From positions 43,237 through 107,236 of the forward strand of contig CAYRSA010000001.1 in NCBI GenBank assembly GCA_964426845.1: 64,000 nt of DNA. Direction: 5' to 3'. The position numbers and the translations under genes are program-made. This document shows, piece by piece, positions 14,115 through 36,864 of this stretch (positions within the stretch are counted from its first letter, which is position 1; every line of letters starts with the position of its first letter). Source of the DNA: an uncultured Candidatus Saccharibacteria bacterium. Its GTDB lineage: Bacteria > Patescibacteriota > Saccharimonadia > Saccharimonadales > JAGQNJ01. The notes beneath the pieces are model-generated. The model was not told the DNA's origin and did no database searches. It was given only the letters and a program-made list of their open reading frames with translations.

Positions 14115-14117
14115 GTC

Positions 14118-16164: not shown

Positions 16165-16170
16165 TCTCCT

Positions 16171-16551
16171 TTATCTGCTAGCCGCTTTTAGCTGGTTTAA
16201 TCGGTTGCGTACGGTTAGGTCCAGCAATTCTTCGCTGGTTTCCAAGCGCACACCACCGAGTAACTCAGGGTCGACGACTTCGTTAATTATTAACTGTTTA
16301 CGGCCCATCAGGGACTTTATGGCCTTACGCGCACCGTCATTCAGTTTAAAAGCACTGGTGGCGGTCACTTCAGTCACATTGTCTTGCTTTTCCCGCAACC
16401 GAGCCACTTCGCGCATAACCGCGTCCAGCTCGCCAGTCCGGCGGCTCTCCACCAGGTAAGCCGCGATCGTCTCGGTCAGTTTCTTTTCAGAAACTTTGCT
16501 GGACAACTTCAAGATAGCTTCGGCTAGTTGTTGGCGGGAAGGGGCAGACAC
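16171..16551 (-). CDS. atpH: ATP synthase delta (OSCP) subunit, short form
   Basis: 126 aa; C-terminal DPELLGGVRLE...LDLTVRNRLNQL matches the delta C-domain; N-terminal part much shorter than the usual ~180 aa. Confidence 0.75.
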   Translation of the reverse strand: MSAPSRQQLAEAILKLSSKVSEKKLTETIAAYLVESRRTGELDAVMREVARLREKQDNVTEVTATSAFKLNDGARKAIKSLMGRKQLIINEVVDPELLGGVRLETSEELLDLTVRNRLNQLKAASR

Positions 16552-17099
16552 TAGGCTTTGCTCCCGACTCGAGCGAAGGCCCGCTTGATCAGAGATTCAT
16601 CTTTCTTAGCATCCAATTTCTCTTCGATAATAACTTCCGTAGCCTCGGCTACAAGAGCACGCATTTCTTGCTCTAAGCTCTTGCGGGCGGCGGCGATGTC
16701 GTCATCAATCTTGCCACGAGCATCAGCTAGAATGGCATCAGCTTTGCGACCGGCGGCTTCTTCGGCAGCCTTGATAATCTCGGCTGACTCCTTTTGGCCG
16801 CCAACGATAATTTCGTCAGCACTAACTCGAGCTTTACGCAACATCTCTTCGACTTTGTTGTCAAGTTGCTCTTTCTCGGCCTCCATCTCACGGCCCAGTC
16901 GCACACCGTCATCAATGGTCTTGCGACGCTTTTCCAGAGTCTGGACAATACCGTCCAGGGCAAACTTCTTGATAATAAAGAACAGCACCAAGAATGTAGC
17001 GGCTTGAGCCAGAATAGCCAACGGGTCGATACCCAATGCGCCAATACCCGAAACCTCTTCGGTAGCGCCAAAATTGGTTAATAAACTCAGTATCTCCAT
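16551..17099 (-). CDS. atpF: Fo ATP synthase b subunit
   Basis: 182 aa; one N-terminal TM then long charged coiled coil. Confidence 0.9.
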   Translation of the reverse strand: MEILSLLTNFGATEEVSGIGALGIDPLAILAQAATFLVLFFIIKKFALDGIVQTLEKRRKTIDDGVRLGREMEAEKEQLDNKVEEMLRKARVSADEIIVGGQKESAEIIKAAEEAAGRKADAILADARGKIDDDIAAARKSLEQEMRALVAEATEVIIEEKLDAKKDESLIKRAFARVGSKA

Positions 17100-17174
17100 G
17101 TTCTCCTTAGAATTATATCATCTTATCTGTTGTACGAGCTAAGCGGCGGGGCCTTAAGGCCCCGCTCAAATTAA

Positions 17175-17438
17175 CTATCCAAGCAAGAAGGCACCCAGAA
17201 GGAATGCCAACAGCGCGGTAACCTCGACCATGGCCGCGATAATCACGACCTGGCCAGCAGCCTTACCAGCTTCAGGGTTGCGACCCAAAGCTTTCATGTA
17301 GGCTGAGCCGATCCAACCAAGACCGATAGCGGCAGCTGACAAAGCAGCTCCCAGCATCAAAGCCTTAGCCATAGTTACGTCGGCAGCAACGGCTGCTTCA
17401 GACGCAGCTTCAGCTGCAAATGTTGTTAGTGGACCCAT
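17175..17438 (-). CDS. atpE: Fo ATP synthase c subunit
   Basis: 87 aa; hairpin of two TM helices, ALGRNPE loop, carboxylate in AMVEVTALLAF. Confidence 0.92.
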   Translation of the reverse strand: MGPLTTFAAEAASEAAVAADVTMAKALMLGAALSAAAIGLGWIGSAYMKALGRNPEAGKAAGQVVIIAAMVEVTALLAFLLGAFLLG

Positions 17439-17507
17439 ATTTCTCCTTTGCCGTGCGCCCTTTTTACGGGGAACCCGGGCTTAAATTTTACCTTATATGT
17501 CCTTTTA

Positions 17508-18359
17508 TCATGTAGTGCCAGCCTCGACCTTTTTGGCTGTCATCGTTTCATGAACGTCTTCATGGCCATGATCTTCAGCGTGGGCGATGGCCAAGCCCAG
17601 GTAGGTTGCAGTCAAAACAGTAAATACGTAGGCCTGAATACCGGCCACTAGGATCTCAAACATAATAATTGGAATAACGGCCAGCGGTGTTCGGCCGTTG
17701 GAAATAACCAGGGAAGTGAAGACCGCCACCAAAATCTCGCCGACGGCAGTGTTTAGGAACAGTCTTAAGCTTAGGCTCAAAATTCTAGTAAACTCACCGA
17801 AGACTTCCAGCAGGCCGATAAACATATTCAAAGGATTAAGTGGCTTGTTAGTGAAGTAGTGTTGCAGGTGTTTCTTGCCACCCTGAGCTTTGATAGACAG
17901 AATTTGCACGAATACGATAGCGGTTACGGCCATAGCGATGGTGCCGTTAAGGTCGGCGGTGAAGGGACGGAGGAGAGGGACGTGCTCGCCGGCATAGACA
18001 ACACTGACCTGCGGGCCGACTACCGGCAAAAGCCCCAGGGTGTTATTCAGTAAGATAAACATAAAGAACGTCCCGAAGATTGGTGCATACTGAACAGCTT
18101 TGGCTCGAGAACCGAAGACACCTTCCAGCATGTTTAGGACATATTCAATGATAACTTCAATAATCTGACCCCAGCCTTTACGGGGCTCAACCTTAATCCG
18201 TCGTCGAGCGGCAATCATAATTACAGAGATCAGCACGGCGCAAATCAGACCGTAGATCATGGCGTTAGTAACCTTCAAAGGTCCGAGGGTGGTAACTTGC
18301 TCGGCCCGCAGGCTGACATGAATATCGGATTCTGCAAACCGCAAAAAAGAGCCTAACAT
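17508..18359 (-). CDS. atpB: Fo ATP synthase a subunit
   Basis: 283 aa; polytopic; conserved LSLRLFLN Arg motif. Confidence 0.92.
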   Translation of the reverse strand: MLGSFLRFAESDIHVSLRAEQVTTLGPLKVTNAMIYGLICAVLISVIMIAARRRIKVEPRKGWGQIIEVIIEYVLNMLEGVFGSRAKAVQYAPIFGTFFMFILLNNTLGLLPVVGPQVSVVYAGEHVPLLRPFTADLNGTIAMAVTAIVFVQILSIKAQGGKKHLQHYFTNKPLNPLNMFIGLLEVFGEFTRILSLSLRLFLNTAVGEILVAVFTSLVISNGRTPLAVIPIIMFEILVAGIQAYVFTVLTATYLGLAIAHAEDHGHEDVHETMTAKKVEAGTT

Positions 18360-24336: not shown

Positions 24337-24690
24337 ATGACCAAAAACTTTGAAGACACTATACTCTCACTACTGCGTGGCATGGACCAGCGTATGGACG
24401 GAATGGCAGGAGATATAGCCGAATTGAAGACTGGCTACAACCACCTCGACAAAAAAATAGACTTGGTAATCGATATTTTGGCCGAACACACCGCAAAGCT
24501 AAAAGAGCACGACGAGCGTTTTTCTCAGATAGACGAGCGTTTTTCTCAGATAGACAAACGATTCGATGAGCACGACAGAATGTTCCGGCAAATTATTGAT
24601 GGTGTCATACCAGAGATGGAGACACGTACTAAACATAGTATGAAGCTCAAAAACCACGAGCGACGCATCACTGCACTCGAGTCAGCCTAA
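24337..24690 (+). CDS. coiled-coil protein with heptad DERFSQI repeats
   Basis: 117 aa; contains a 21-bp tandem duplication (24511-24552); TATACT 6 nt before ATG. Confidence 0.55.
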   Translation: MTKNFEDTILSLLRGMDQRMDGMAGDIAELKTGYNHLDKKIDLVIDILAEHTAKLKEHDERFSQIDERFSQIDKRFDEHDRMFRQIIDGVIPEMETRTKHSMKLKNHERRITALESA

Positions 24691-24739: not shown

Positions 24740-24814
24740 TCCCGGGTAGCTCAATGGTGGAGCAAGAAGCTGTTAACTTCGAGGTTGCCGGTTCGAGTCC
24801 GGCCCCGGGAGCCA
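24740..24814 (+). tRNA. tRNA-Asn (anticodon GTT), CCA encoded
   Basis: 75 nt; acceptor TCCCGGG/CCCGGGA, D arm GCTC/GAGC, anticodon loop CTGTTAA, T arm GCCGG-TTCGAGT-CCGGC; TATAAT promoter box at 24722. Confidence 0.92.
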
Positions 24815-24860
24815 AGCATAAGCATTTTCTTTACATTTCTTAATGCGATATAATTAGCGT

Positions 24861-25271
24861 ATGGCTGAACGAATTATCGGGATAGGTGAAACGAGTTCTT
24901 TTCGCTACTTTGCAATTCAGCCGCCCCTCGAAGATGTCGAAGCTAAAGCTCTTATTGACACACTGCAGCTTCCGTTCAGGGCTTACTGGCCGATGAACTT
25001 TACGCAAGAGCGAAGGGCTGACAGCCCGGACCATACCGAATTTGGAATTGACGTTGGAGCCGCTATAGATTGGATTGGGCTAGAAGAAGTCGATGGTGGA
25101 GCCGTTGAGATAGCTCAACAAATAGCATCTATCCTCGCCCAGCAAGGAGACGATGTTGTTGTTCTTGAAGATATTGTATCTACGAGCTGGGAAGCTCCCA
25201 TTTTTGGGCAAGATGCTGACCACCAAAGGGAGCTTGCGGAATACTTTAGGTCGCATCCAGAGCAAGAATAG
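24861..25271 (+). CDS. cassette 1: hypothetical acidic protein (136 aa)
   Basis: TATAAT (24849-24854) 6 nt before ATG; no domain recognised. Confidence 0.6.
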   Translation: MAERIIGIGETSSFRYFAIQPPLEDVEAKALIDTLQLPFRAYWPMNFTQERRADSPDHTEFGIDVGAAIDWIGLEEVDGGAVEIAQQIASILAQQGDDVVVLEDIVSTSWEAPIFGQDADHQRELAEYFRSHPEQE

Positions 25272-25349
25272 TCCGAGCATCCATCACCACCGAGAGCCAA
25301 GCATAATCGGAATGAGGCCTGAGAGGGTCTCTTTTGTTATGATTAGTGT
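25272..25349 (+). repeat. junction J1 (short form)
   Basis: left arm TCCGAGCATCCATCACCACCGAGA; core GAGAGCCAAGCATAATC 25292-25308; hairpin GAGGCC-TGAGAG-GGTCTC plus TTTTG; TATGAT 25338-25343. Confidence 0.8.
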
Positions 25350-26222
25350 ATGCGAGACTATGTAGCTGAAGTTAAGGCAGCCTTTCCTGAGCTAAAGATT
25401 AAGAAAACAAAGCTCTATGAAAATGGCTGGGATTGTGTAGTCGTAGAAGTGAATAACAGTCTCATGTTCCGCGTGCCAAGAAAAAAACGAGACATGACCA
25501 ACGACTGGAAACTCTTGGACTTCCTATCGAAGAAGGCCCTATCCGTACCCGGTGGCAATGTTATCTCGGCGGACGGTGTCATTACTGGTTATGAGAAGCT
25601 CCCAGGGGAAGAACTAAGGCCAAAAGTCCTCGAGAACCTAGACCCAGCTTTGAAAGGTGATGCCCTAAATCAGATAGCTGATTTCCTGACAGAACTGCAC
25701 GGTCTGGATATCAAAGAAGTTGAGGCTCTCGGCTACCAGCCAAAGGCTCCAGATTATTTGTTCGACAAGGTGCGGGGATGGGTTGATAAGTACCTGCCGC
25801 AACGCTTAAGTGGGCCAGAAATGGAACGGGTTGAGAAGTTTATGCATGAATGGGAAGAAAACATCGGTGGCTACACAGCTTGTTTAGTTCATTGCGACTT
25901 TTCATCAGACCATATCTTGTACAACAAGGAAGACAGCAACATACGATTAGGCTTTATTGACTTCTCGGACAGCATCATCCACGACCCAGCCTGGGACTTC
26001 GCCAAGCTATTCGACTACGGTGAGAAAGCATTCAAGCACATACTTGGCAGGTACAAAACAGCAAACAACAAGCACGGGATTGACAAACGAGCAAGAATCT
26101 ACAGAGAACGAACCTATGTATGGCACTTAGTTGACCCCTTCTTAGACCTGCCGTACTTACCCTTTGACTTTGAAACGGCATTGAAAGATTTCAGAGCTAA
26201 CATGATGTCAGAGAAAGATTAG
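25350..26222 (+). CDS. cassette 2: aminoglycoside/small-molecule phosphotransferase (APH family kinase)
   Basis: 290 aa; catalytic HCDFSSDHILY and IDFSD motifs of the APH/choline-kinase fold. Confidence 0.8.
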   Translation: MRDYVAEVKAAFPELKIKKTKLYENGWDCVVVEVNNSLMFRVPRKKRDMTNDWKLLDFLSKKALSVPGGNVISADGVITGYEKLPGEELRPKVLENLDPALKGDALNQIADFLTELHGLDIKEVEALGYQPKAPDYLFDKVRGWVDKYLPQRLSGPEMERVEKFMHEWEENIGGYTACLVHCDFSSDHILYNKEDSNIRLGFIDFSDSIIHDPAWDFAKLFDYGEKAFKHILGRYKTANNKHGIDKRARIYRERTYVWHLVDPFLDLPYLPFDFETALKDFRANMMSEKD

Positions 26223-26314
26223 TTCTAACGTCCGTCACTACCGAGACCCAAGCATAAGCGGGATGAGAAAGAGGCAGGAATACATCTTTTGATATCTTGG
26301 GATATACTGTAAAT
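26223..26314 (+). repeat. junction J2 (short form, unique right arm)
   Basis: left arm AGTTCTAACGTCCGTCACTACCGAGA; core GAGACCCAAGCATAAGC 26243-26259; TATACT 26303-26308. Confidence 0.75.
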
Positions 26315-26812
26315 GTGATTAAAATTGAATTTGTTCCTGAATCTGAAAGTTTTACTCCAGCAGCTAGTGAATATGCTGATATATGGAACGCTGATGGTTC
26401 TCGAGTGGTAGAAGCAATACAAACCGTGACTGGCTTACCCCTGGAAGAAGAAGTCCAAGCAGTGGTCTTTGAGGGGATAAGCCGCTCACACCCTCTTAAG
26501 TTCAGAGCTAGTTATGATAGAGAAACTAAAGCAGCTACTATTGTGCACGAGTTGTTGCACAGGGTTTGTGTTGCTAATCATCTTAAATTACCAGTGGATG
26601 ACGAAGACCGAGGCATAGCTGCTCACAAACAGATTGACCTGGCACTCTATGACATTTGGCGCAGTCTATATGGTCAAGAGTTTGCAGATAGACAGGTAGC
26701 AATTGAGTCTGAGAGAGCAAACGGTAAATACCGTGAAGCTTGGGGTTGGGCACTATCAATGTCAGAGCAAGAACGACAAGCTAAATTTGCTTCATTAATT
26801 CCCAAAGAATAG
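26315..26812 (+). CDS. cassette 3: hypothetical protein with HExxH-like motif (VHELLH)
   Basis: ORF track starts at TTG 26297; GTG 26315 lies exactly 6 nt after TATACT, as in the other cassettes. Confidence 0.55.
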   Translation: MIKIEFVPESESFTPAASEYADIWNADGSRVVEAIQTVTGLPLEEEVQAVVFEGISRSHPLKFRASYDRETKAATIVHELLHRVCVANHLKLPVDDEDRGIAAHKQIDLALYDIWRSLYGQEFADRQVAIESERANGKYREAWGWALSMSEQERQAKFASLIPKE

Positions 26813-26955
26813 TTCTATCTTCCATTGTTTTGGACAGAACCATAATCTGACCATAGTACTTGGTACGAAGTACGTCAGCTATAGGGAGCCAAGCATAAGC
26901 ACTTTGAAGGTGTTAAAACCTAGACATATATCACGTTTTGTGGTATTTTTAGTTT
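26813..26955 (+). repeat. junction J3 (long form)
   Basis: left arm AGTTCTATCTTCCATTG; insert CCATAATCTGACCATAGTACTTGGTACGAAGTACGTCAGCTA from 26840; exact core 26884-26900; right arm CCTAGACA..TTTTGTGGTATTTT; TATTTT 26944-26949. Confidence 0.85.
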
Positions 26956-27459
26956 GTGTCAGTTCGTGTTACTACTGAAGAAGCCCGAGAGTATGTAGCC
27001 TCCAAATTACATGGCCTCGAAACTCCTCGAATGATGAGGTTTCCGACAATGGGCAATCATCTTGCATCTGCAATCATTTGGGCTGCCTGTGGTGAGGAAG
27101 GACAAAGACACGATATTGGGTTTTATTACACTTCCTTCAGGATTATTAGCCCAAGACCGTTCGAACAAAACTTGCAAAGAAGTCAACTTTGGCTAGACGC
27201 CCTGGAGAACTTTGAAGAATATGAATGGGGAGCGCGTGAGAGGCTTAGAAATGGTGAAAGTGACAATATTTTAGACGGTCTCGATTGGGAGACGGCTGCT
27301 CAGTGGAAGTTTGATGATTGGCCAGTCGATATTTTCGCGGTTAACTCGCTTGGAGAGGCAGCAAAAGTTTCACACATGGGCGGATTTGTAGACTTAGATG
27401 ATACAAGCTGGCCTATCGTTCAGTCTTCAATTCACTATGGGATAGCAGAGCAGTTCTAA
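26956..27459 (+). CDS. cassette 4: hypothetical protein (167 aa)
   Basis: GTG start 6 nt after TATTTT; no domain recognised; its TAA stop is the second stop of the AGTTCTAA motif. Confidence 0.55.
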   Translation: MSVRVTTEEAREYVASKLHGLETPRMMRFPTMGNHLASAIIWAACGEEGQRHDIGFYYTSFRIISPRPFEQNLQRSQLWLDALENFEEYEWGARERLRNGESDNILDGLDWETAAQWKFDDWPVDIFAVNSLGEAAKVSHMGGFVDLDDTSWPIVQSSIHYGIAEQF

Positions 27460-27576
27460 TTTCTTTCAGCTCTGCCATTGCCATAATCTGACCATAGTAC
27501 TTGGTACGAAGTACGTCAGCTAGAGGGGCCAAGCATAAGCACTTTGAAAGAGGTGCTTTTTTGTTAGTATTAGAGC
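27460..27576 (+). repeat. junction J4 (long form)
   Basis: insert from 27481; core with 1-nt deletion GGGGCCAAGCATAAGC 27525-27540; hairpin AGCAC-TTTGAAAGAG-GTGCT plus TTTTTTG; TAGTAT 27565-27570. Confidence 0.85.
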
Positions 27577-28224
27577 ATGAAAGTTGCGATTACAGGAGCG
27601 AACGGAAAAGTTGCACAGGCATTGATTGGCCAGCTTGACCCTGAACGATTTGAAATTACTAAACTAGACATCCCAGACCACGACTCAGCTAATCTGGATG
27701 CCTTAATTGCTGATACCAAGGGTCATGACGCACTTATTCATCTGGCCTGGAAAGACCTAGACGTAGGCTCTGTTGACCCAATCAATGGGGTTATGTACGA
27801 GAACGCCTACAGAGCGGCTGTGGCAAACGGAATTAGTCTTGTTATGATGGGTAGCTCCAACCATGCTAGAAGCCACGAGCAGCGTGAAGCTGATGGTCGG
27901 ATACGATACACAGGCCAAGCCGAATTAGCTAATAACCTCTATGGGGTGGAGAAGCAGAAGATGGAGGCAATGGGGAGGCTGTTTGCTGCAACAGAAGGGT
28001 TGTCAGTGCTCTGTGTGCGTATCGGCAATATTAATCCAGAAGATGAACCACGCCCCGACGTGCCGACCAGGTGGATGAGTCACAGAGACTGGGGAAACTT
28101 TGCAAGTCTTGCTTTAGAGTACGCTTTTCCTGAAGGGCATTTCGAGATAGCTTATGGCGTAAGCGACCAACCTATCTTCGACTGGACTAATTCATTTGGT
28201 TACGAGCCACAAGACAAAGCTTAG
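27577..28224 (+). CDS. cassette 5: NAD(P)-binding Rossmann protein (epimerase/dehydratase-like, short)
   Basis: 215 aa; MKVAITGANGKVAQAL glycine-rich dinucleotide motif. Confidence 0.65.
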   Translation: MKVAITGANGKVAQALIGQLDPERFEITKLDIPDHDSANLDALIADTKGHDALIHLAWKDLDVGSVDPINGVMYENAYRAAVANGISLVMMGSSNHARSHEQREADGRIRYTGQAELANNLYGVEKQKMEAMGRLFAATEGLSVLCVRIGNINPEDEPRPDVPTRWMSHRDWGNFASLALEYAFPEGHFEIAYGVSDQPIFDWTNSFGYEPQDKA

Positions 28225-28353
28225 CTCTAACTTCCATCACACCCGACATCGCCATAATCTGTCCGTAATACTTAGTACGAAGTACGTCAGCTAGAGGAAG
28301 CCAAGCATAAGCGGAATGAGACCTGAGAGGGTCTCTTTTGTTATGATTAAGAA
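28225..28353 (+). repeat. junction J5 (long form)
   Basis: left arm AGCTCTAACTTCCATCACACCCGACA; insert from 28251; core GGAAGCCAAGCATAAGC 28296-28312; hairpin GAGACC-TGAGAG-GGTCTC plus TTTTG; TATGAT 6 nt before ATG. Confidence 0.85.
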
Positions 28354-28839
28354 ATGGGTGTTAAGAACTATCTGATTGAAGGTGTCTCAGGAACAGGCAA
28401 AAGCTCGGTTTGCCAGGAACTTAGGCGTCGTGGCTACGATGTGGTGGATGGCGATAAAGAGCTGGCTTATCAAGGTGACCCTGAAACAGGCGAAAAGACA
28501 GAAGGGCATACTCACCAACACCACATCTGGAATGAAGCTAAAGTCCGTAAAATTGCTTCAGACCACACAAAGTCAGTTACTTACTTTTGTGGTGGTTCAA
28601 GAAACTTCAGCAGGTTCTTAGACGTGTTCGACAGGATATACATCCTGGATGTTGACGAAGCAACCCTAAACGACCGACTAGACAGTAGGGATGGATGGGG
28701 TAAAGAAAAATCTGAACGTGAATTAGTATTAAGGCTTCATGAGAGCAAGGAAGACTTGCCACAAGACGGTATAGAGATAGATGCCACGGAGCCACTGTCA
28801 AAAGTGGTGGATAAAATCATTAGCTCATCAGAAGCCTAG
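28354..28839 (+). CDS. cassette 6: P-loop kinase-like protein
   Basis: 161 aa; GVSGTGKSS Walker A at the N-terminus. Confidence 0.6.
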   Translation: MGVKNYLIEGVSGTGKSSVCQELRRRGYDVVDGDKELAYQGDPETGEKTEGHTHQHHIWNEAKVRKIASDHTKSVTYFCGGSRNFSRFLDVFDRIYILDVDEATLNDRLDSRDGWGKEKSERELVLRLHESKEDLPQDGIEIDATEPLSKVVDKIISSSEA

Positions 28840-28907
28840 TTATAACATCCCCCACTACTAAGAGCCACAACCTAGACAAATTTCACTTTTTGTGGTATTT
28901 TAGTGAT
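28840..28907 (+). repeat. junction J6 (degenerate short form)
   Basis: left arm AGTTATAACATCCCCCACTACTAAGA; only GAGCCA of the core retained, then CCTAGACAAATTTCACTTTTTGTGGTATTTT (same right arm as J3); TATTTT 28896-28901. Confidence 0.7.
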
Positions 28908-29453
28908 ATGAATGTCCGTAGAGAAACCGACCCGCAATCACCAACGTCTCCCATACTTGCTAGGTGGTTGGCATATGATGATGAATATTGCGAGCACGAT
29001 ATTACGCTAGAAACTGCTGGCGGCCGACATGGCATAGGCATTTGGAAAGAAGAAGGTGAGATAGTTGTAGCTACCGGAAACCTTTGGGTTGATGAAAAAA
29101 TGCGTCAAACTGGCGTCGGTACTAGGCTACTTAAAGCCGGTCTTGTATTGGCCAAGAGCCACGGAGCCACAATATCAAGCTCTGATGTCTACTCGCCCCA
29201 TGCATTAAAAATTAGGCAAAATATATTTGGTGAAAACAATCTTAGATTTTGGGACGCATCCAACTTCAATATAGGTGAGCTACCTATTTCAGTAAGTCAA
29301 GCAATTATGTCTCTTGAGCGGGCTGCCCAGAGTGCCGAAGAGTATAGAACAAGCGAAGAGGGATTTATCGTTAGGTCTGTACTTGCCGATGTAGATATGT
29401 GCGACTGGGAGCAACCTATAGAAGTGAACGCTCCTGACCTGCCAACGGACTAA
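28908..29453 (+). CDS. cassette 7: GNAT-like N-acetyltransferase
   Basis: ORF track starts at TTG 28890; ATG 28908 is 6 nt after TATTTT; acetyl-CoA loop-like MRQTGVGTRLLKAGLVLAKSHGA. Confidence 0.55.
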   Translation: MNVRRETDPQSPTSPILARWLAYDDEYCEHDITLETAGGRHGIGIWKEEGEIVVATGNLWVDEKMRQTGVGTRLLKAGLVLAKSHGATISSSDVYSPHALKIRQNIFGENNLRFWDASNFNIGELPISVSQAIMSLERAAQSAEEYRTSEEGFIVRSVLADVDMCDWEQPIEVNAPDLPTD

Positions 29454-29594
29454 TACTCTTTTTCCATCACTTCCGAGAGCGCCATAATTTGACCGTAGTA
29501 CTTGGTACGAAGCAAGTCAGCTAGAGGGAGCCAAGCATAAGCGATATGAGACCTGAGAAGGTCTCTTTTGTTGTTTGTGGGGTATACTATCTGT
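29454..29594 (+). repeat. junction J7 (long form)
   Basis: left arm TACTCTTTTTCCATCACTTCCGAGA; insert from 29481; exact core 29526-29542; hairpin GAGACC-TGAGAA-GGTCTC plus TTTTG; TATACT 29583-29588. Confidence 0.85.
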
Positions 29595-30284
29595 ATGAAA
29601 CTTGCAGGTGAAACAGCGGTTATAGTCGGTGGAAGCCAAGGAATCGGGCGGGCGCTGGCCGAAGGACTGCTCCACGAAGGTGCCAATGTTGTAATCGCTA
29701 GTCGAACCCAAGAAACAGTAGAAAAGACTGCTGAAGAAATTGGTGCAGAGGCTTTTGTTGTAGACGTACGTGAAGAACAGGACTTAAGAGACCTTGCTGC
29801 TTTTGCAATCGAGACTTTTGGTGGAATTAACTTATGGGTCAATAGTGCGGGTCAATTCAAGAAGTTTCCCAAGGAAGACCTCCTTGACATGGAAAGAGCT
29901 CATGAGATGTTTGACGTAAACTTTTTTGGTGCTGTACTTGGCTCAAGAACAGCATTGCTCAATATGGAAGACGGTGCATTAATTAACTTACTATCCAGCG
30001 CAGCACTCGATGCCACTCGGTCTGTTGGAGCTAAGTTATATGCATCAAGCAAGTGGGCACTGCGGGGCTATGTAGATGCATTGCGTGGTGAAAATCCAGA
30101 CAGTCCAGTAAGAATACTTTCTGTTTATCCAGGTGGCACGAAGTCACACCTACATGACGAAGCTCTGCCCGATGAATTTGCAAATTTTATGGAGCCAGAG
30201 CATGTTGTTGAGAAAGTTATCGCAAACTTGCTACTCGAAGAGCCAGAACTAGATTTAGTTATTAAGCGACCGTCAGTAAGCTAG
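29595..30284 (+). CDS. cassette 8: short-chain dehydrogenase/reductase (SDR)
   Basis: ORF track starts at TTG 29568; ATG 29595 (MKLAGETAVIVGGSQGIGRA) is 6 nt after TATACT; YASSK catalytic motif. Confidence 0.85.
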   Translation: MKLAGETAVIVGGSQGIGRALAEGLLHEGANVVIASRTQETVEKTAEEIGAEAFVVDVREEQDLRDLAAFAIETFGGINLWVNSAGQFKKFPKEDLLDMERAHEMFDVNFFGAVLGSRTALLNMEDGALINLLSSAALDATRSVGAKLYASSKWALRGYVDALRGENPDSPVRILSVYPGGTKSHLHDEALPDEFANFMEPEHVVEKVIANLLLEEPELDLVIKRPSVS

Positions 30285-30402
30285 GCCTACCCCAAGCAAT
30301 CTCCATAACCTGACCGTAATACCTGGTAAGAAGTACGTCAGCTAGAGGGAGCCAAGCATAAGCGCTTTGAATAAGGTGCTTTTTTGTTAGTATTAGGCCA
30401 GT
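30285..30402 (+). repeat. junction J8 (long form, most diverged)
   Basis: left part GCCTACCCCAAGCAATCTCCATAACC; insert from 30302; exact core 30347-30363; hairpin AGCGC-TTTGAATAAG-GTGCT (A-T, G-C, C-G, G.U, C-G pairs) plus TTTTTTG; TAGTAT 9 nt before ATG. Confidence 0.8.
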
Positions 30403-31635
30403 ATGTCAACAGTCTCTTTTATTCGTTCTCCATGTGAGGTCCTGGTACTTGATGAGGTCAAGACTGGGTCTCGATTTCTTGAACTTCCACCTCCCGAATA
30501 CACAGACAGGGAATATGAAGAGGTCTTCCGAGATGCACAAGCAAGGCTAGGGCTTGAAGATTTAGAGCCTGTTCATGAAGGAGGGAAAACAAAACTTGTA
30601 GCCCCTGACGGATACAAGTTTCGGATAACTGGAGCTTTTACCCTCTGGCCAGACGGTAATGATATTTCCTGGGGCTATGGACCTCCTACGGACAGTTACG
30701 AAGAATGGCGCAGACAAAATCAGGGTAGCTTGGCTAGGTATGAGGCTGAGGGGTTAAGTCCTGAAGAAGCTGAGAAACGGGTTGCTGACGGAGAATGGGA
30801 GACAAGTACATATGGCATTCCGAGTATTGAATATTATGAAGGCCCAAGTCTGACATTTTCTTTTGATGACGTGGAGTGGGGAGGAATTGTGCCAACAGAC
30901 AGAGAAAGCAGACACTCTTCTGATGATGGGCCGCCCACTGTTAAGGTACGACTAAGTCATTATAGGGAAACTTGGTTAGAGCAAGCGCGTAGGCATATAA
31001 AACTGCCTAATAGCGAAAATGACAGATTGCTTGCAACCCACCAATACGGACAGCCCGGAATAATTCCTTGCTGGAAGGGTGGACACAGTGATGGTGATAT
31101 AGAAAATATCGCGATTGAACTTGTACCAATCGGTGAAGACGATGGAGACAAAGAATTGCCTATGCTGAAAAGATTGTGGGTACCCGAGAATGTACGATGG
31201 ACTTTATATGAAGACTTCCCCGACTTAATAGACCAAGATGGCGACGAAGCAAGCCGCACGGACATGGGAGGTGCAATGCGCATGTTTGGGGAAGTTATGG
31301 GGCTTCTTGGTGGTTCAGACCAGAATATGTTTGACCAATTAAGCGCGGAAAGCAGATTAGCAGTCGTCGACCACCCTATGCTTGCTCATATGGATACTGG
31401 GAAGTTAGCAGAAGCCGTTGAGGAGCTTATTCAAATCACAAATGAGCAAGAACCAGGGAAAGATAGAGAGCGAGAGAGAGAAGAGGAAAATGCTAAAAAG
31501 ATGGAAGCAAAACGGAAACGACTCGTAGTTATAACAGACTTGGACGAAAGTATTCATTCGGTTGCTCGAAGAATAGGGGCAGACGACACTTGGCTCGAAG
31601 ACCACGCTCGCTATGTCAATAGCTTTGACTGGTAA
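30403..31635 (+). CDS. cassette 9: hypothetical acidic protein (410 aa)
   Basis: long ORF, no domain recognised; C-terminal charged EREREEENAKKMEAKRKR stretch. Confidence 0.6.
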   Translation: MSTVSFIRSPCEVLVLDEVKTGSRFLELPPPEYTDREYEEVFRDAQARLGLEDLEPVHEGGKTKLVAPDGYKFRITGAFTLWPDGNDISWGYGPPTDSYEEWRRQNQGSLARYEAEGLSPEEAEKRVADGEWETSTYGIPSIEYYEGPSLTFSFDDVEWGGIVPTDRESRHSSDDGPPTVKVRLSHYRETWLEQARRHIKLPNSENDRLLATHQYGQPGIIPCWKGGHSDGDIENIAIELVPIGEDDGDKELPMLKRLWVPENVRWTLYEDFPDLIDQDGDEASRTDMGGAMRMFGEVMGLLGGSDQNMFDQLSAESRLAVVDHPMLAHMDTGKLAEAVEELIQITNEQEPGKDREREREEENAKKMEAKRKRLVVITDLDESIHSVARRIGADDTWLEDHARYVNSFDW

Positions 31636-31771
31636 TGTGAAGTTCTAGCTTCCACAGCCTTCGCCATGGCCATAATCTGACCATAATACTTAGTACGAAG
31701 TACGTCAGCTAGAGGGAGCCAAGCGTAAGCGTTTTGAGACCTGGAAGGGTCTCTTTTGTTATACTAGGACA
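31636..31771 (+). repeat. junction J9 (long form)
   Basis: left arm GAAGTTCTAGCTTCCACAGCC; insert from 31669; core GGGAGCCAAGCGTAAGC 31714-31730; hairpin GAGACC-TGGAAG-GGTCTC plus TTTTG; TATACT 31760-31765. Confidence 0.85.
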
Positions 31772-32218
31772 ATGGATTTACACGAACTTGCAAAAGAGTA
31801 TCTAGGCAGTGTCAAGCACATGCAACTTGCTACCGTCAAGAATGGTCAGCCATGGATTTGTACCGTCTATTTTGTGGCTGATGACGATTACAATTTTTAT
31901 TGGACGTCGGGCCGAGACAAGCAACACTCGGTTGAAATAAAATCTGATCCAAGAGCCGCGGCTACCGTAGTTCTAGACACTGATAAAAAACGAGCTCTAC
32001 AGATGGCGGGTAGTGCCGAGGAAGTCAGTGATGAGGAGTTAGAGCGCGTACACCAGCTATACCAGTCAAAATTTGGCTCAAAAGACTATGATTTAGAGGA
32101 AATGAAACAGCACAAGGCCGTCGGCCGAGCCTATTGGAAGTTTAAGCCTTCTGTAGCCATGTTTTGGGACGAGGTTAACTTCCCAGACACGCCAAAACAA
32201 CGCTTGAATCTGGTATAA
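31772..32218 (+). CDS. cassette 10: pyridoxamine 5'-phosphate oxidase-family (FMN-binding split barrel) protein
   Basis: 148 aa; N-terminal HMQLATVKNGQPWICTVYF pattern typical of PNPOx/general-stress-26-like proteins. Confidence 0.7.
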   Translation: MDLHELAKEYLGSVKHMQLATVKNGQPWICTVYFVADDDYNFYWTSGRDKQHSVEIKSDPRAAATVVLDTDKKRALQMAGSAEEVSDEELERVHQLYQSKFGSKDYDLEEMKQHKAVGRAYWKFKPSVAMFWDEVNFPDTPKQRLNLV

Positions 32219-32331
32219 TAACCTCGTTGATAAGTCCAGATAACGGATAGACCTTGTCCTCGCAAGGAACAACTATTTACTGGCTAACATTATAAAAGAG
32301 GCTCACTATTAACATAATAAGGAGTCATCTG

Positions 32332-32490
32332 ATGTCAAAAATGACAAAAGAAGAAGAAATCGACTGGTACGAGCGGTCCAAGAAACATTGGCGTTCGTGG
32401 GGTTCGTGGTTCAGTTGGGGCTCTCCTGTCGGGTTAGGACTATTTTTCCTAGCCTGCGCCGGAGCCATCTGGATCATTGCTCAGATATAG
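32332..32490 (+). CDS. small Trp-rich membrane protein (52 aa)
   Basis: SD AAGGAG 7 nt upstream; MSKMTKEEEIDWYERSKKHWRSWGSWFSWGSPVGLGLFFLACAGAIWIIAQI; below ORF-track cutoff. Confidence 0.45.
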   Translation: MSKMTKEEEIDWYERSKKHWRSWGSWFSWGSPVGLGLFFLACAGAIWIIAQI

Positions 32491-32685
32491 AGCAATCAGC
32501 AGGGAAGCAGGGCGTCACAACATGGCGCTCTGTTTTTGTCTTTTGTAGACAAGCACCCACTTTTGTGATATTTTCCATTATATGCCCTTAAGAATTGATG
32601 AGACTACGCCTTTTGACTTGGTACGAGAGCTGTCTCCAACCCGGCACGCCGCTACCGCTGCTAGAGATAGACCCCTAGACACCGA

Positions 32686-32928
32686 TTAGATTATCGGCAG
32701 GTCCTCGACAGGCTGATCGAGTATTTTAGCTAGTAGCTCGATCTGTTGAAACTTACAGTATTTAATTGGAGCTCCGGCGGCGTCATAAATCCGGTAGTAG
32801 TGGGTGAAGGTGACTGTTTCACCTTTGAAGTTCTTGGCCTGTGTGGGCTTTTCGATTCGCCTAATTGTCCAGCCGGCTGGCTGGTCGGCTAGAATGCGCT
32901 TGATCTTGGCGTAGTGGTTGAAAGGCAT
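32686..32928 (-). CDS. hypothetical protein (80 aa)
   Basis: ORF track extends to 33123, but ATG 32928 (MPFNHYAKIKRIL...) lies 7 nt after TATACT and avoids overlap with the divergent gene. Confidence 0.5.
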   Translation of the reverse strand: MPFNHYAKIKRILADQPAGWTIRRIEKPTQAKNFKGETVTFTHYYRIYDAAGAPIKYCKFQQIELLAKILDQPVEDLPII

Positions 32929-33002
32929 TAATAAGAGTATATCAATACATAAGTCCAGAAGCCCCGTCTCTCGACAAAACACTGTTATTATGGTATCCTT
33001 TA

Positions 33003-33770
33003 ATGATGACAGAACATCAGCCAAGACTACCGGATAATGCCTGGTTCCCTGGGGAGCAGGTCGCCAGTTGGGAAGGCCGCCGCTTTGGCTACCGAGCCCT
33101 TTTTGAAGCCATCGTCGATCCATCTACCTTTAAAGAGATTTGTAATTCAGCCGGACAGGACGAGCTGATTGAATTATTTGAGCCTACTGAGAACGATAGT
33201 CTATCGATCACCATGTTAGGCGAATACGACGAACCTACTGGTGAACCGGTTGTACTAAGCATTGAAAACCCAGCCACAATCTTAACACATGGCTCGCGTT
33301 TCATACTTGATGCTACTGCCTCCAGCGAACCTTTCGCTTACACCTGCACTTTATACGGAGAAAAGCCTTTGAGACTTGATTACTTCGCTCTGGGTGATCG
33401 GGAGCGTCCTGTCAGATTCATAGAAACTCTAGCTATCAAAGATGGAGTCGAGTGCGATGTCTATGAGCTCGACGGCGACGATACACAGGATTTGGCTATA
33501 GTTCGGGTCGCCAAGGGCTCATCTACACCACGCCAACGTGTGCTACAGGGCGACTTAACGATTGAAGGCCATGTATCAGGCGAAGGCGAATTAGTTATCG
33601 CTAGAGCCAACGGCAACAAAGAAGTATACCCTTTCAGAGATGATTTACGTACACGGCCAGTGCAGGTAGATATCGGTGACACCATGCGCTGGACAGCAAT
33701 TGGAGATCTCGTTTTCTATGAAATATGCCAGCCGCCCTACGCCGAAGGCCGCTATCAAGACCTAGATTAA
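33003..33770 (+). CDS. hypothetical protein, C-terminal cupin-like barrel
   Basis: 255 aa; C-terminal GDLTIEGHVSGEGELVIA...GDTMRWTAIGDLVFYEI suggests a beta-barrel; weak call. Confidence 0.5.
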   Translation: MMTEHQPRLPDNAWFPGEQVASWEGRRFGYRALFEAIVDPSTFKEICNSAGQDELIELFEPTENDSLSITMLGEYDEPTGEPVVLSIENPATILTHGSRFILDATASSEPFAYTCTLYGEKPLRLDYFALGDRERPVRFIETLAIKDGVECDVYELDGDDTQDLAIVRVAKGSSTPRQRVLQGDLTIEGHVSGEGELVIARANGNKEVYPFRDDLRTRPVQVDIGDTMRWTAIGDLVFYEICQPPYAEGRYQDLD

Positions 33771-33803
33771 GCCAATTGCCGCAACTAGTGGTACACTATT
33801 ATC

Positions 33804-34283
33804 ATGATGGTTAAGCTTGTCTCGTACTTGCGATATGCTCTAGGTGGCGCTGGTTTATATTTTGCCTTCAGTCAACTGGCCGCTAGCCCAGCCGAAGCTG
33901 TAGCCACTGCCACTCTATACACTGTGGGAGCCGTAGGAATTCTCAGTTTTGTCAGCCATGCCCTCCTACACGAAGGCGATGCCAAGATGATTGGCTTCAG
34001 CAGTAAAACACCTAGTTTCCAGTTCGAAGTTGGCTTCGCTAATCTAGCTTTTGGTGTGGTAGCCTTGATCAGTTACGTCGATGGCTGGGGCATCAGAGCC
34101 AACACCACTCTGTTACTAGCTTACTCTTTGTACCTACTCCAAGCCGGAATCTTGCATTTCGCCGAATCCCGCCGAAAGAAGAAAATGAGCCAAACCAACC
34201 TCATTAGGGCTATGGTCACTTTTGCATACAGCGGAGCTATGCTGTACATCGCCGCCCACGCTATCAGCTCGAGCTCCTTCTAG
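33804..34283 (+). CDS. hypothetical polytopic membrane protein (159 aa)
   Basis: 4-5 hydrophobic segments; TGgTACACT 6 nt before ATG. Confidence 0.6.
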   Translation: MMVKLVSYLRYALGGAGLYFAFSQLAASPAEAVATATLYTVGAVGILSFVSHALLHEGDAKMIGFSSKTPSFQFEVGFANLAFGVVALISYVDGWGIRANTTLLLAYSLYLLQAGILHFAESRRKKKMSQTNLIRAMVTFAYSGAMLYIAAHAISSSSF

Positions 34284-34329
34284 CCATTTACAAGCGGAGT
34301 ATAATAGAGGCATTAACCAAGGAGGGATT

Positions 34330-34557
34330 ATGTCTGCAAAAGAATTAAACCTAAAACCAGGTAAGTGGGTAGTGGCCGACTGTGGCTCGATGCCCAGCGA
34401 CAGCAACTGCCAATTAGTCATATTGGCTCCTGAGGACCAGAAGGCTGATTTAGTAGATGCCGGCGTCAAGCATGCCGTTGCCAAGCATGGCCACGAAGAA
34501 AGCGACGAGCTGAGGAAGGGCGTTGAAGGCATGTGCGAGGTCGTCGAAATCGCATGA
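34330..34557 (+). CDS. DUF1059-like small metal-binding protein (75 aa)
   Basis: start set to ATG 34330 behind SD AAGGAGGGA; Cys pair plus His-rich KHAVAKHGHEE. Confidence 0.6.
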   Translation: MSAKELNLKPGKWVVADCGSMPSDSNCQLVILAPEDQKADLVDAGVKHAVAKHGHEESDELRKGVEGMCEVVEIA

Positions 34558-35204
34558 AAATAACCAAGCTAGTTCACTCTTGCTTACTGGTCGAGAAAGA
34601 GAATACTCGGATACTTGTCGATCCCGGCAACTACAGCTGGGCCAGTGGATTGGTCGGCGAAGATCACATGAAAGATTTGAGCGCCGTGGTGGTCACTCAC
34701 GCTCATCCCGACCATCTGCATCAAGATTTCGTCGAAGCTATCAACAAGGGCTCGCCCAAAGCTGTTTGGTACGGTCCGCAGGAAGTAGTCGATCAACTTA
34801 GCGAGTGGGACATAAATGGCAGGACTACGAGCGACGACGTCAACGTCAAGTTTATTGATTCAAAGCACGCCGACTTGTCGCCATGGTTCGGCCAACAGCC
34901 CGACCATACCAGTTATGTGCTGTTCGGCGACCTGATAATTGGCGGTGACTGTCACACGCTTGACCAATCTCACGGAGCCAGAATCTTCGGCGCCGCAGTC
35001 AGTGGCGGCCCCTGGGCCGGAGTGGTGGGCTTTGCCAAAATGATCGAAGCTATGACAGACCGGCCAGCCACCGTAATCCCTCTACATGACTGGCATTGGA
35101 ACGAAGAGGCCAGGGCTGGTATCTATGACCGACTGCCAGATGTGCTGGGCCAATTTGACGTCAGCTTTGTACCGCTAGAGAACGGTAAAACCGAAGAGCT
35201 GTAA
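34554..35204 (+). CDS. MBL-fold metallo-hydrolase
   Basis: start set to ATG 34554 (ATGA overlap with upstream stop); THAHPDH zinc motif. Confidence 0.8.
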   Translation: MKITKLVHSCLLVEKENTRILVDPGNYSWASGLVGEDHMKDLSAVVVTHAHPDHLHQDFVEAINKGSPKAVWYGPQEVVDQLSEWDINGRTTSDDVNVKFIDSKHADLSPWFGQQPDHTSYVLFGDLIIGGDCHTLDQSHGARIFGAAVSGGPWAGVVGFAKMIEAMTDRPATVIPLHDWHWNEEARAGIYDRLPDVLGQFDVSFVPLENGKTEEL

Positions 35205-35235
35205 CATACGAAGATGCTCGGTGTATAATAAGGCC

Positions 35236-35547
35236 ATGCCCACAACCATCGTTTCCGCCGGTCCGGCTCATAAAATGCCGGCCGATCTGGGTAAAGCCCT
35301 GGCGGCTGACCCAAAAGCTCTGGCCAAGTGGGAGAGTCTGACGCCACTGGCTCGTAATGAGTGGATTTGCTGGAATGTGACCGTCAAACAGGAGGCCACC
35401 CGCAAGAATCACATAAAGAGAACTGTTACTGAACTCAAGGAAGGTAAGCGCCGCCCCTGTTGCTGGATGGGTTGTGTGCATCGGACCGACAAGCCGATCA
35501 GCCCAACCATGAAATGGATTCTAGAAAAACAAGGAGGTAAGCGATGA
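35236..35547 (+). CDS. YdeI/OmpD-associated family protein
   Basis: start ATG 35236 is 6 nt after TATAAT; PADLGKALAADPKALAKWESLTPLARNEWICW is typical of the family. Confidence 0.7.
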   Translation: MPTTIVSAGPAHKMPADLGKALAADPKALAKWESLTPLARNEWICWNVTVKQEATRKNHIKRTVTELKEGKRRPCCWMGCVHRTDKPISPTMKWILEKQGGKR

Positions 35548-35999
35548 CAATAACCCCAAACCTGTGGTTCGACGGCAATGCCAAGGAAGCGGTGGACTTT
35601 TACGTCTCGGTCTTCCCGGACAGCAAGATAACCTCGACCGAATACTACCCCGAGACGCAAGAGGAGGGTCTAGCCGACTTTCAGAAAAGCCTGGCCGGCA
35701 AAGTGCTGACCATTGAGTTCGTGCTATCCGGCAACCCCTTTGTCGCCATCAACGCCGGTCCAGAGTTCAAATTCAACGAATCGGTTTCCTTCTCGGTGCC
35801 TTGCAAAGACCAAGCAGAAATCGACTACTTCTGGGAAAAACTATCCAAAGTACCCGAGTCCGAGCAGTGTGGCTGGTGCAAAGATCAATTTGGCCTGAGT
35901 TGGCAAATCGTGCCGGCCAATATGAGCGAGCTAATGAAGCGCCCTGATGCTTTCAAGAAGATGATGGAGATGCACAAGCTGATTATTGCTGACTTCTAG
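35544..35999 (+). CDS. VOC/glyoxalase-superfamily protein (PhnB-like, 3-demethylubiquinone-9 3-methyltransferase-domain family)
   Basis: 151 aa; MTITPNLWFDGNAKEAVDFYVSVFPDSKI and CGWCKDQFGLSWQI are signatures of this family. Confidence 0.85.
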   Translation: MTITPNLWFDGNAKEAVDFYVSVFPDSKITSTEYYPETQEEGLADFQKSLAGKVLTIEFVLSGNPFVAINAGPEFKFNESVSFSVPCKDQAEIDYFWEKLSKVPESEQCGWCKDQFGLSWQIVPANMSELMKRPDAFKKMMEMHKLIIADF

Positions 36000-36864
36000 A
36001 GTTTTTGTAGTCGTTAAAGCGCACTTCAGTAGGCGTAATCTTCAGGACTACGTAGTCGCCGGCCGCAATTTTTGTTATCGGCGGAATATCAACTTCGCCT
36101 CTGTATAAGTGAGGTCTGACTATCTTCTCCAACATCATTTGGGCTTTGGGCAATTCTGATTCAACTGTAGCCATACCCTGCAATTGGACAGTTTGGCGGG
36201 CGCCTTCATCAACAACCGTCAGGGCCACGCCAGGGTGTACTAGAATATTTTGAGCTTTCCGGGTGGTGCTCTTGGTAGCTACATAAATGTCTCCGTTGTC
36301 GGATAGGGCATAGTAGACGGCCGCGCCGGTGATATTACCTTCGCGGTCGGCACTGGATAGCACGGCCAAGTTGTGCGAAGCCAAGAACACGCCGGCCGAC
36401 TTGTCGATACCCACGGGTGTCGCCGAGATTTCAGCTGGGTTGGGGCTGCCAATTGCCGTGCCGCCAACTTCCTCTAAGCGTCGTTCCTCCATATAGGAAA
36501 CGAATTTATCAGCGCATTTACGGTTTACAAACAGGATTGTGTAGTCACCAAGCCTAGTATGGACGGTGACGCCCGCAAAACGGCCTTGGGTATTGAAAGA
36601 CACGCCGCTCAGCACGTTGTAGGAGATCTCATCATTAATTCTGAAGAAAGGCTTGTGTTCTAGATAAAGCATTCTCAGGTTAGTAGCCACAAACATAGCT
36701 GACTCCCGACCACGACGACCGTATATTACACCGCCAATATGTTCGTCAGGATGAATCATGGTGGGCAGATGTTTGGTCTCGCCCTTCATAAGGCCATAAT
36801 TGGACATGCCGGCGGCCACCAACTCTTTACGAACCCGTTCTTCGTGGGCAGTCAATGGTTTCAT
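35983..36864 (-). CDS. bacterial PH-domain plus PNPOx-like fusion protein
   Basis: 293 aa; N-terminal YokE-like PH region, C-terminal FMN-binding split-barrel-like region. Confidence 0.55.
   Translation of the reverse strand: MKPLTAHEERVRKELVAAGMSNYGLMKGETKHLPTMIHPDEHIGGVIYGRRGRESAMFVATNLRMLYLEHKPFFRINDEISYNVLSGVSFNTQGRFAGVTVHTRLGDYTILFVNRKCADKFVSYMEERRLEEVGGTAIGSPNPAEISATPVGIDKSAGVFLASHNLAVLSSADREGNITGAAVYYALSDNGDIYVATKSTTRKAQNILVHPGVALTVVDEGARQTVQLQGMATVESELPKAQMMLEKIVRPHLYRGEVDIPPITKIAAGDYVVLKITPTEVRFNDYKNSRSQQ

Follow-up and report, generated by a model that had tools for sequence, protein, structure and literature searches.

The DNA analysed here, hereafter the window, is a stretch of 64,000 nucleotides from an uncultured Candidatus Saccharibacteria bacterium (GenBank assembly GCA_964426845.1, contig CAYRSA010000001.1, positions 43,237 to 107,236 of the forward strand), in which a tRNA-Asn gene is followed by ten single-gene units that meet at nine junction repeats, J1 to J9 (Table 1). 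An earlier note on this DNA had pointed out that the repeats differ from one another in the manner of a protein-coding sequence, although nothing in them can be translated. Our results indicate that the repeats are recombination scars of a large serine recombinase (LSR) and that they carry the last ~30 codons of an LSR gene whose reading frame spans its own attachment site, attP, a reading to which we give a probability of roughly 0.7. The peptide read from the repeats begins at TGG, the complement of the CCA of the tRNA, and matches a tail that is linked to LSR C-termini in related bacteria. An origin from a gene tail explains why the repeats diverge like a gene without being translatable here. 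Since the 64-kb window encodes neither a serine nor any other recombinase (Pfam on ~57 open reading frames, ORFs, and LSR queries against its six-frame translation), the nine scars would be untranslated relics.

Coding-like divergence of the junction repeats

Copies of a 17-nt core lie at the tRNA locus and at eight of the junctions, and to the left of the core each junction has an arm, which is long (~75 nt) at six of them (J3, J4, J5, J7, J8 and J9) and short (30 nt) at the other three (J1, J2 and the degenerate J6). The portion of the core that comes from the tRNA is the terminal 8 nt, CCA included, and the locus thus has the tRNA gene and the direct repeats of its 3' fragment that form part of the Islander definition.

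In agreement with the earlier note, the 61-nt consensus of the six long copies contains 13 variable columns. Eight of these fall on the third codon position, three on the first and two on the second in the minus-strand frame that reads A-Y-A-W-L-P-L-A-D-V-L-R-T-K-Y-Y-G-Q-I-M. Seven of the eight third-position changes had been called synonymous; taken singly all eight are, the GTA>GTG change in J7 coinciding with a first-position change to give TTG. The coordinates of the repeats had been given correctly, and the frame is as had been described: J4 carries a frameshifting 1-nt deletion, the frame of J5 begins after a TAA, J3, J5 and J9 have no ATG, GTG or TTG in the stretch from the nearest preceding stop to W, and J7 alone has a stop where the peptide ends. 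One of the short peptides needs correction, as J1, with a core of ...ATAATC, reads DYAW and not AYAW.

It is the copies from outside the window that make the third-position bias significant, which eight of 13 taken alone is not. A core-pattern scan of genome contigs yielded one metagenome-assembled genome (MAG; L001/L002), whose contig has an array like that of the window, with arms that have diverged. In ten copies, comprising those of the window and four diverged ones from this Saccharibacteria MAG, 12 of 26 column-variants are synonymous compared with ~21% expected (P ~0.001), and one of the MAG copies differs from the window consensus by 10 nt changes in 11 codons, every one of them synonymous, a CGT>AGA change for Arg included. 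When substitutions in 19 copies from 14 loci were counted by frame, using codons outside the DNA pattern with which the copies had been searched, the ratio of nonsynonymous to synonymous changes (pN/pS) was 0.36-0.59 in the frame proposed by the earlier note versus 0.9-1.2 in the two shifted frames (column-shuffle P 0.01-0.02), and the six window copies alone gave 0.06-0.37. The clearest coding-type divergence is found in the distal codons (K-Y-Y-G-Q-I-M and onwards), beyond a recombinase half-site of 25-30 bp. From W onwards, every one of the 24 copies ascertained at the DNA level has 24 or more open codons (median 35). These frame-specific ratios, together with the match to LSR tails described below, support the earlier proposal that the repeats are what is left of a coding segment whose copies diverged in different donors while purifying selection acted on them.

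The arm also has the properties of a DNA half-site. Measured on the left arms, with the T of TGG as nt 1, a heptamer T[CA]G[ATG]AC[CT] occupies nt 24-30 in almost every one of ~30 phage-type (P) arms, which include both long and short ones and represent several lineages, the exceptions being copies with a 1-nt deletion such as J4. In tRNAs the T-loop sequence TCGAACC is at nt 19-25 from TGG, and the T-loop-like motif of the repeats is therefore 5 nt further from CCA. Serine integrases show just such a 5-bp shift of the motif for the zinc-ribbon domain between attP and host-type (attB) half-sites (PMC3783163), and the repeats follow this rule. A half-site role explains why W-L-P-L-A-D-x-L-R-T is the best-kept segment, why the short forms retain it with the motif in register, and why it survives in untranslated copies.

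Compared with the long form, the short form lacks exactly 17 codons (51 nt), with the heptamer staying at nt 24-30 from TGG; because the deletion keeps this offset, the long arm must contain two [LV]-R-T units 51 nt apart. Short forms are also present in another genome (L001, around 1535-1572 and 2795-2833), which argues for a propagated variant and not a single deletion event. A further junction variant, at L049 (reverse strand, 818) and L052 (reverse strand, 65), has a more tRNA-like arm (TGGC[CT]CCCAGGGCCGGGTAAACGCCCGACT) and a ..CGAC.-type heptamer that is still at nt 24-30.

A large serine recombinase family at tRNA-Asn

A degenerate back-translated DNA pattern run on metagenomes returned at least ~16 true loci, and tRNA-Asn lies upstream in the same orientation at 8 of the ~16 listed. 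L049 and L052 are syntenic with the window, having smpB, a coiled-coil gene and tRNA-Asn followed by different cassettes. Most of the matches listed came from an unrelated conserved protein (WLPVADLFST...), probably of conjugative transposons, which the pattern picked up because its MGN also admits Ser; these were set aside.

At the L038 locus an ORF on the opposite strand enters the tRNA at its 3' end, reading LLEPFNASSTMSKSRN and then WLRGRGSNPRPIG before a stop. Its homologues are mainly fragments of 77-166 aa from Nanosynbacter and other Saccharibacteria, and a profile of this family of ~110-aa fragments gave 1944 protein matches. The top 150 of these include 18 proteins with lengths of 400-540 aa, in which the match lies at the very C-terminus. 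Pfam recognizes Resolvase, Recombinase and Zn_ribbon_recom in P0044 and Resolvase and Recombinase in P0187, that is, serine-recombinase domains and not a tyrosine-recombinase catalytic domain, and the 400-540 aa members with these domains are LSRs. Among solved structures the family has no sequence-level relative.

At all four full-length LSR loci examined, which come from different samples (L127, L132, L133 and L134), the gene overlaps tRNA-Asn by exactly 42 nt on the opposite strand, which means that the last 12 codons of the LSR in its integrated state are tRNA antisense. The four proteins end in W-L-P-x-x-D-S-N-x-Q-P-x-x, and tRNA-antisense C-terminal residues are present in 70 of the 190 related proteins retrieved. 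An LSR thus occupies the homologous tRNA-Asn site in these four loci, and none is present in the 64-kb window. The LSR C-terminal profile and five full-length LSRs, searched against the six-frame translation of the window, revealed no recombinase relic, the only weak matches of the LSR queries being the tRNA antisense itself and a coiled-coil protein. In many oral Saccharibacteria, C-terminal LSR fragments of a recurrent size of ~100-115 aa, starting near ..ITVDEYDKY.., adjoin tRNA-Asn (example in Table 1); these are either relics for which one truncation point is preferred or a small protein that has been kept, such as a factor that hampers incoming integrases.

At least 13 distinct relic ORFs run in frame from an LSR C-terminus through W into a tail of the pattern W-L-[PAT]-L-[AV]-[DN]-x-[LF]-R-T-x-S-x-D-Y-D-...-I-K-x-L-L, with a stop 29-33 residues after W. 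The L127 locus has, in order, tRNA-Asn, a full LSR reading into the tRNA, an element of 7.2 kb, and then TGGCTCCC with the tail LPLADTFRTALFSYDSEKLEEVKVIL, directly upstream of which, and in frame with it, is the C-terminal relic of an older LSR; the newer element has been inserted on the tRNA-proximal side of this relic. Joining the end of the LSR to the tail, as on circularisation, yields a single continuous ORF.

A hidden Markov model (HMM) of seven LSR-linked tails links these relics to the window: against its six-frame translation the six best matches are J9, J5, J3, J7, J4 and J8, the first four with E values of 0.001-0.008 and J4 and J8 with 0.1-0.2, while the next match has 1.6. Comparison of the window-peptide profile with the LSR-tail profile by hhalign gave E 1.7e-5 over 14 columns. 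In L130 a right arm of the window type (..QSAYA before W, with identical core, GCACTTTG and terminator) is joined to the tail WLALANELRTASMNYDESEVRNIKGLLLGVA and a stop, and L131 has this tail fused, with the frame maintained, to the relic of an LSR. Between the tails of L130 and L131 there are 5 differences in 96 nt, of which four are synonymous third positions. The start at TGG, the LSR-linked tails, the 42-nt tRNA overlap and the tail HMM fit one of the two candidates that the earlier note had named, an integrase gene that contains its own att site. The other, a replacement copy of the end of the target gene, does not apply, as the target is a tRNA of which 8 nt are repeated and the arm is not tRNA sequence beyond these.

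The L127 element (10286-17534; GCA_024682595.1, JAIKZA010000008.1) is a compact 7.2-kb integrative element at tRNA-Asn that carries, besides the LSR, a small HTH_17/MerR-like gene that may encode a directionality factor, together with a SpoVG-like gene and an ABC-F ATPase. The ABC-F class includes ribosome-protection resistance proteins. A C-terminal LSR fragment with an intact tail, without a full recombinase, is present at L128 (7597-8169) on an 18.6-kb Logan contig (SRR30424958) that is phage-like, with portal, capsid, Gp19, amidase and VRR-NUC genes, suggesting that the module of LSR end and tail occurs in phage DNA too. At L003 (9389-10174) a lone junction stands straight after a MazE/PemK-type toxin-antitoxin pair on the peptide strand, a layout that resembles the inverted toxin-antitoxin cassettes of integrons. 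An AlphaFold model of P0042 shows the tail as two helices at low confidence (predicted local distance difference test score, pLDDT, 57) and was not used as evidence.

Proposed mechanism and competing explanations

In the mechanism that we propose, the LSR would belong to integrative elements specific for the 3' end of tRNA-Asn, and its frame would cross the element's own attP, with the crossover region at the TGG codon. The P arm would encode the last ~30 codons, W-L-P-L-A-D-x-L-R-T and then an amphipathic stretch, its first ~30 nt doubling as P-type half-site and coding sequence. Integration at tRNA-Asn would cut these tail codons off, leaving an integrated LSR that ends in the 12 tRNA-antisense codons with all of its catalytic and DNA-binding domains intact, and the severed codons would stay at the far end of the inserted DNA, beside a copy of the core. 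Each junction would then consist of a P arm, the crossover core and a right arm from an LSR-mediated insertion. The differences between copies would be mostly synonymous changes accrued in working LSR genes of different donors, with minor later decay in the window (the J4 frameshift and J8). We infer, in addition, that the excised element makes the full-length LSR with its tail, that the KYYGQIM-type tail of the window came from such a full-length tailed gene, and the route by which the ten-unit array was assembled.

Several observations weigh against this reading. A full-length LSR with an attP-type tail was not found among 5.8 billion or 1.84 billion proteins, and every tail-bearing ORF is a relic of 37-166 aa. 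The intact parent gene with the exact window peptide that the earlier note had proposed to look for did not turn up either, a profile against the 5.8 billion proteins giving four short ORFs only, and a protein search with LSR end plus tail gave 89 matches, all of 118 aa or less, with no full-length excised form. Full-length LSR genes are seen only integrated, with the tail replaced by tRNA antisense, and the missing tailed form would be expected of databases that hold mainly integrated copies. A search upstream of KYY-type tails never found a KYYGQIM-type tail fused to an LSR fragment; a resemblance to LSR seen by eye upstream of the tail in L006 was unsupported. Detectable similarity between the window and the LSR tails is limited to the first ~11-14 residues, which are also the DNA half-site, so that this part of the match could be DNA-level. 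The relics from protein databases were found as ORFs and are thus biased to open frames, the DNA pattern had no match in viral contigs, and the position count from the window alone is weak (P ~0.10 after allowing for three phases). The three types of right arm resemble the 5' modules of cassettes and not the ends of LSR genes. Finally, LSRs are known to recombine only attP with attB (PMC3783163), which fits poorly with a ten-unit array built by repeated use of one tRNA site. The tRNA-proximal site would have to remain host-like after each insertion, and as a conjecture the shared right-arm modules might keep it so.

Some of these points would be accommodated by a constraint on the DNA only, in which the arm is a half-site, or a decayed copy of a tRNA T-arm and acceptor, and both the likeness to a peptide and the 3-nt periodicity are by-products. 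The best-kept nt 1-30 from TGG coincide with the expected LSR half-site and mimic the tRNA (GAC ... TCGAACC), the short forms retain them without the rest of the peptide, the profile similarity to LSR-linked tails is restricted to them, and the window-only count is not significant. We nevertheless regard this explanation as unlikely, because codons 11-17 and 11-25, which lie outside the 25-30-bp half-site, have pN/pS values of 0.06-0.6 compared with ~1 in shifted frames, and because Arg is encoded by CGT, CGA, AGA or AGG and never by AGY, though the search pattern permitted AGY; the uniformly open frame and its continuity with LSR C-termini at the relic junctions speak against it as well. It is very unlikely that a stand-alone small protein of ~50-70 aa, such as an excisionase-like factor or a micropeptide, is translated across each junction. 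Four short database ORFs (P0001-P0004) do have start codons 11-22 codons upstream of W, and several junctions of the window have 43-58 open codons in this frame, but many loci have a stop 0-6 codons before W, the sequence upstream of W is unconserved and part of terminator or promoter modules, and the J4 frameshift and the lack of start codons at J3, J5 and J9 point the same way.

The array has the look of an integron, with single-gene units in one orientation, repeats of 40-120 nt between them, cargo typical of cassettes (APH, GNAT and SDR in the window, toxin-antitoxin or restriction-modification genes in relatives) and an ORF stop TAG that often lies within the edge of the repeat. That the repeats are attC-type sites which fold as single strands for a tyrosine recombinase, with an incidental peptide pattern, is slightly less probable again than a small protein. 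The 64 kb encode no tyrosine or other recombinase, folding of the junctions as single-stranded DNA is not better than that of shuffled sequences on either strand (z +1.2 to -1.5), consensus structure is absent and covariation is at control level, the units have terminator or promoter modules of their own, and in relatives the sites go together with the end of a tRNA and with serine recombinases. Lowest of all we rate a structured RNA that ends each cassette transcript, whether an element of the 3' untranslated region or a tRNA-like mini-helix. An imperfect hairpin (CTGAC..GTACTT-loop-AAGTAC..GTCAG) is present in the window copies, with ..GGGAGCCA after it, and the wider alignment has a few double-sided changes (7 cells; a covariation score reached by 7 of 500 shuffles). 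On the other hand, 22% of cells are unpaired, the paired fraction of 78% compares with 76% in shuffles, RNAalifold on the repeat alignment predicts no consensus structure, with covariation no better than in controls, an Rfam scan finds only tRNA, and diverged copies drop the stem yet keep the peptide. The earlier judgement that a structured RNA fits less well, and the doubts about the hairpin, are thereby borne out.

Beyond the LSR-scar reading itself, we tentatively raise the possibility, which we think has more against it than for it, that Saccharibacteria run an integron-like gene capture on the LSR. Integrase-less cassettes, with a P arm and a right arm that restores a host-type tRNA-Asn site, would be inserted serially by an LSR supplied in trans from a phage or element, and the tail swap would be a switch of directionality or activity.

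The array, known systems and significance

The units measure 0.5-1.4 kb and have one ORF each, without an integrase; the last may be the original flank. The upstream neighbour of the tRNA-Asn gene in the window is smpB. To the right of the core each junction has one of three shared modules, namely two kinds of terminator-like hairpin or a promoter-like element, all of which start with AGCATAAGC, and terminator-like sites number 16 versus 6.4 +/- 2.6 expected. At the left edge of six of the nine junctions the TAG that stops the plus-strand ORF is also the opening triplet of the conserved repeat TAGTTCTAAC (e.g. 26810-26820, 28222-28232 and 26219-26229), so that unrelated ORFs join the repeat at one exact point.

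Just 5' of tRNA-Asn, the coiled-coil ORF 24337-24690 contains a perfect 21-nt tandem duplication (GACGAGCGTTTTTCTCAGATA twice; 24511-24552), which is in frame and doubles DERFSQI; a comparable heptad repeat (EHTRILD three times) occurs in the homologue at L052. This ORF weakly matches the coiled-coil part of one LSR (E 9e-4), probably a compositional effect. Past the last junction, 32219-36000 is free of junction repeats and holds a small membrane ORF, DUF6790, a metallo-beta-lactamase fold, YdeI/OmdA and a PhnB-like gene, with a third TAGACA-17-TATTTT copy at 32546-32574 and a strong terminator at 32503-32537; it may be an older, eroded portion of the island.

Table 1. Features of the tRNA-Asn array and its junctions (window positions, except in the last row; heptamer positions are counted from TGG)
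Feature	Position	Strand	Remarks
tRNA-Asn(GTT)	24740-24814	+	array anchor; ARAGORN; Rfam tRNA 63.6 bits
17-nt core GGGAGCCAAGCATAAGC at tRNA locus	24807-24823		last 8 nt of tRNA GGGAGCCA and following 9 nt AGCATAAGC
Array of ten single-gene units	24824-32218	+	all ORFs +; ORF list and Pfam
Unit ORF	24861-25271	+	Pfam: no match
Unit ORF	25350-26222	+	Pfam: APH phosphotransferase
Unit ORF	26297-26812	+	Pfam: no match
Unit ORF	26956-27459	+	Pfam: no match
Unit ORF	27577-28224	+	Pfam: epimerase-like
Unit ORF	28354-28839	+	Pfam: AAA kinase
Unit ORF	28890-29453	+	Pfam: GNAT
Unit ORF	29568-30284	+	Pfam: SDR
Unit ORF	30403-31635	+	Pfam: no match
Unit ORF	31772-32218	+	Pfam: PNPOx; no junction beyond
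J1, short form	25270-25308	-	30-nt P-type arm DYAWLSVVMDART and core; heptamer TCGGACT at nt 24-30
J2, short form	26221-26259	-	AYAWVSVVTDVRT; heptamer TAGAACT at nt 24-30
J3, long form	26811-26900	-	probable recombinase-tail relic WLPIADVLRTKYYGQIMVLSKTMEDRT and core; copy starts at 26840; tail HMM E 0.0019
J4, long form	27452-27540	-	1-nt core deletion (GAGGG-GCC), frameshift; copy starts at 27480
J5, long form	28223-28312	-	WLPLADVLRTKYYGQIMAMSGVMEVRA; copy starts at 28252; tail HMM E 0.0018
J6, degenerate short form	28838-28870	-	arm and GAGCCA retained, remaining core lost
J7, long form	29453-29542	-	WLPLADLLRTKYYGQIMALSEVMEKEY and stop, the sole copy with a stop at the peptide end; copy starts at 29482; tail HMM E 0.0081
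J8, long form	30284-30363	-	most decayed: R>L, K>R, distal part unconserved; copy starts at 30303
J9, long form	31641-31730	-	WLPLADVLRTKYYGQIMAMAKAVEART; copy starts at 31670; tail HMM E 0.0012
Right arm type A	28318-28344	+	terminator-like hairpin GAGACCTGAGAGGGTCTC and T run, directly after core
Right arm type A, further copies	25314-25340, 29548-29574, 31736-31762
Right arm type B	27537-27568, 30360-30391		AAGCACTTTGAAAGAGGTGCTT and T run
Right arm type C	26921-26949, 28873-28901		promoter-like TAGACA-17-TATTTT
Recurrent LSR fragment, example	L038 (rev.) 6740-7052		proteins P0005-P0042

A close parallel to an integrase frame that crosses its attachment site is IntP of myxophage Mx8, a tyrosine recombinase whose int ORF extends over attP and whose gene, on integration next to or into a tRNA gene end, receives another 3' end, with a changed C-terminus (PMC6070905, PMC4383910). 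The LSR ORF related to the window would likewise cross attP and gain a new C-terminus at a tRNA, but it encodes a serine recombinase, would swap ~30 codons for 12 tRNA-antisense codons, and its split-off ends would pile up in an array of integrase-less units. In the SSV-type 'suicidal' integrases, tyrosine recombinases found on plasmids and viruses of archaea, the site is also inside the integrase gene, integration partitions the gene, and the compact module of int and att can spread between elements; a 2021 review considered self-partitioning integrases exclusive to archaea (PMC8371274). The LSR differs in its bacterial host, a member of the candidate phyla radiation, in being a serine recombinase, and in keeping its catalytic and DNA-binding domains intact, whereas the SSV gene is truly disrupted. 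With the large serine integrases of A118/LI, Bxb1, phiC31 and SPbeta it shares the Resolvase, Recombinase, zinc-ribbon and coiled-coil parts, short att sites and the 5-bp motif shift between phage-type and host-type half-sites (PMC3783163); unlike these, it targets the end of a tRNA gene and its ORF would cross attP. According to the Islander paper (2015), no serine integrase was known to have a tRNA gene as its target.

In anatomy the array is like chromosomal integrons and integrase-less attC clusters, which also have single genes in one orientation, accessory or defence cargo and conserved repeats. In contrast to them it has no IntI or attC fold, is anchored at a tRNA, has units with terminators and promoters, and has repeats that would derive from the site and gene end of a serine recombinase. 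Tandem tRNA islands of the Islander type share with it the direct repeats of a tRNA 3' fragment that mark successive insertions, but the known arrays use tyrosine integrases, normally one per member, whereas the window units are integrase-less and repeat 8 nt of the tRNA. The comparison with tandem tRNA islands extends to cis-mobilizable elements and tycheposon satellites.

Searches of the open-access literature turned up no published account of the LSR family described here, its tRNA-Asn site or the Saccharibacteria arrays, and in the literature searched an integrase frame that crosses attP has been described only for tyrosine recombinases (Mx8, SSV). The present analysis documents a large family of serine recombinases, with 1944 profile matches, that has a tRNA end as its target and probably a frame across its own attachment site, and it gives the paradox of gene-like evolution in an untranslatable sequence a concrete mechanism that can be checked. 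The paired att half-sites of such divergent LSRs are candidate tools for genome engineering. For Saccharibacteria, tRNA-Asn emerges as a hotspot for the turnover of resistance-like, restriction-modification and toxin-antitoxin genes, which is relevant to gene flow in these epibionts with reduced genomes.

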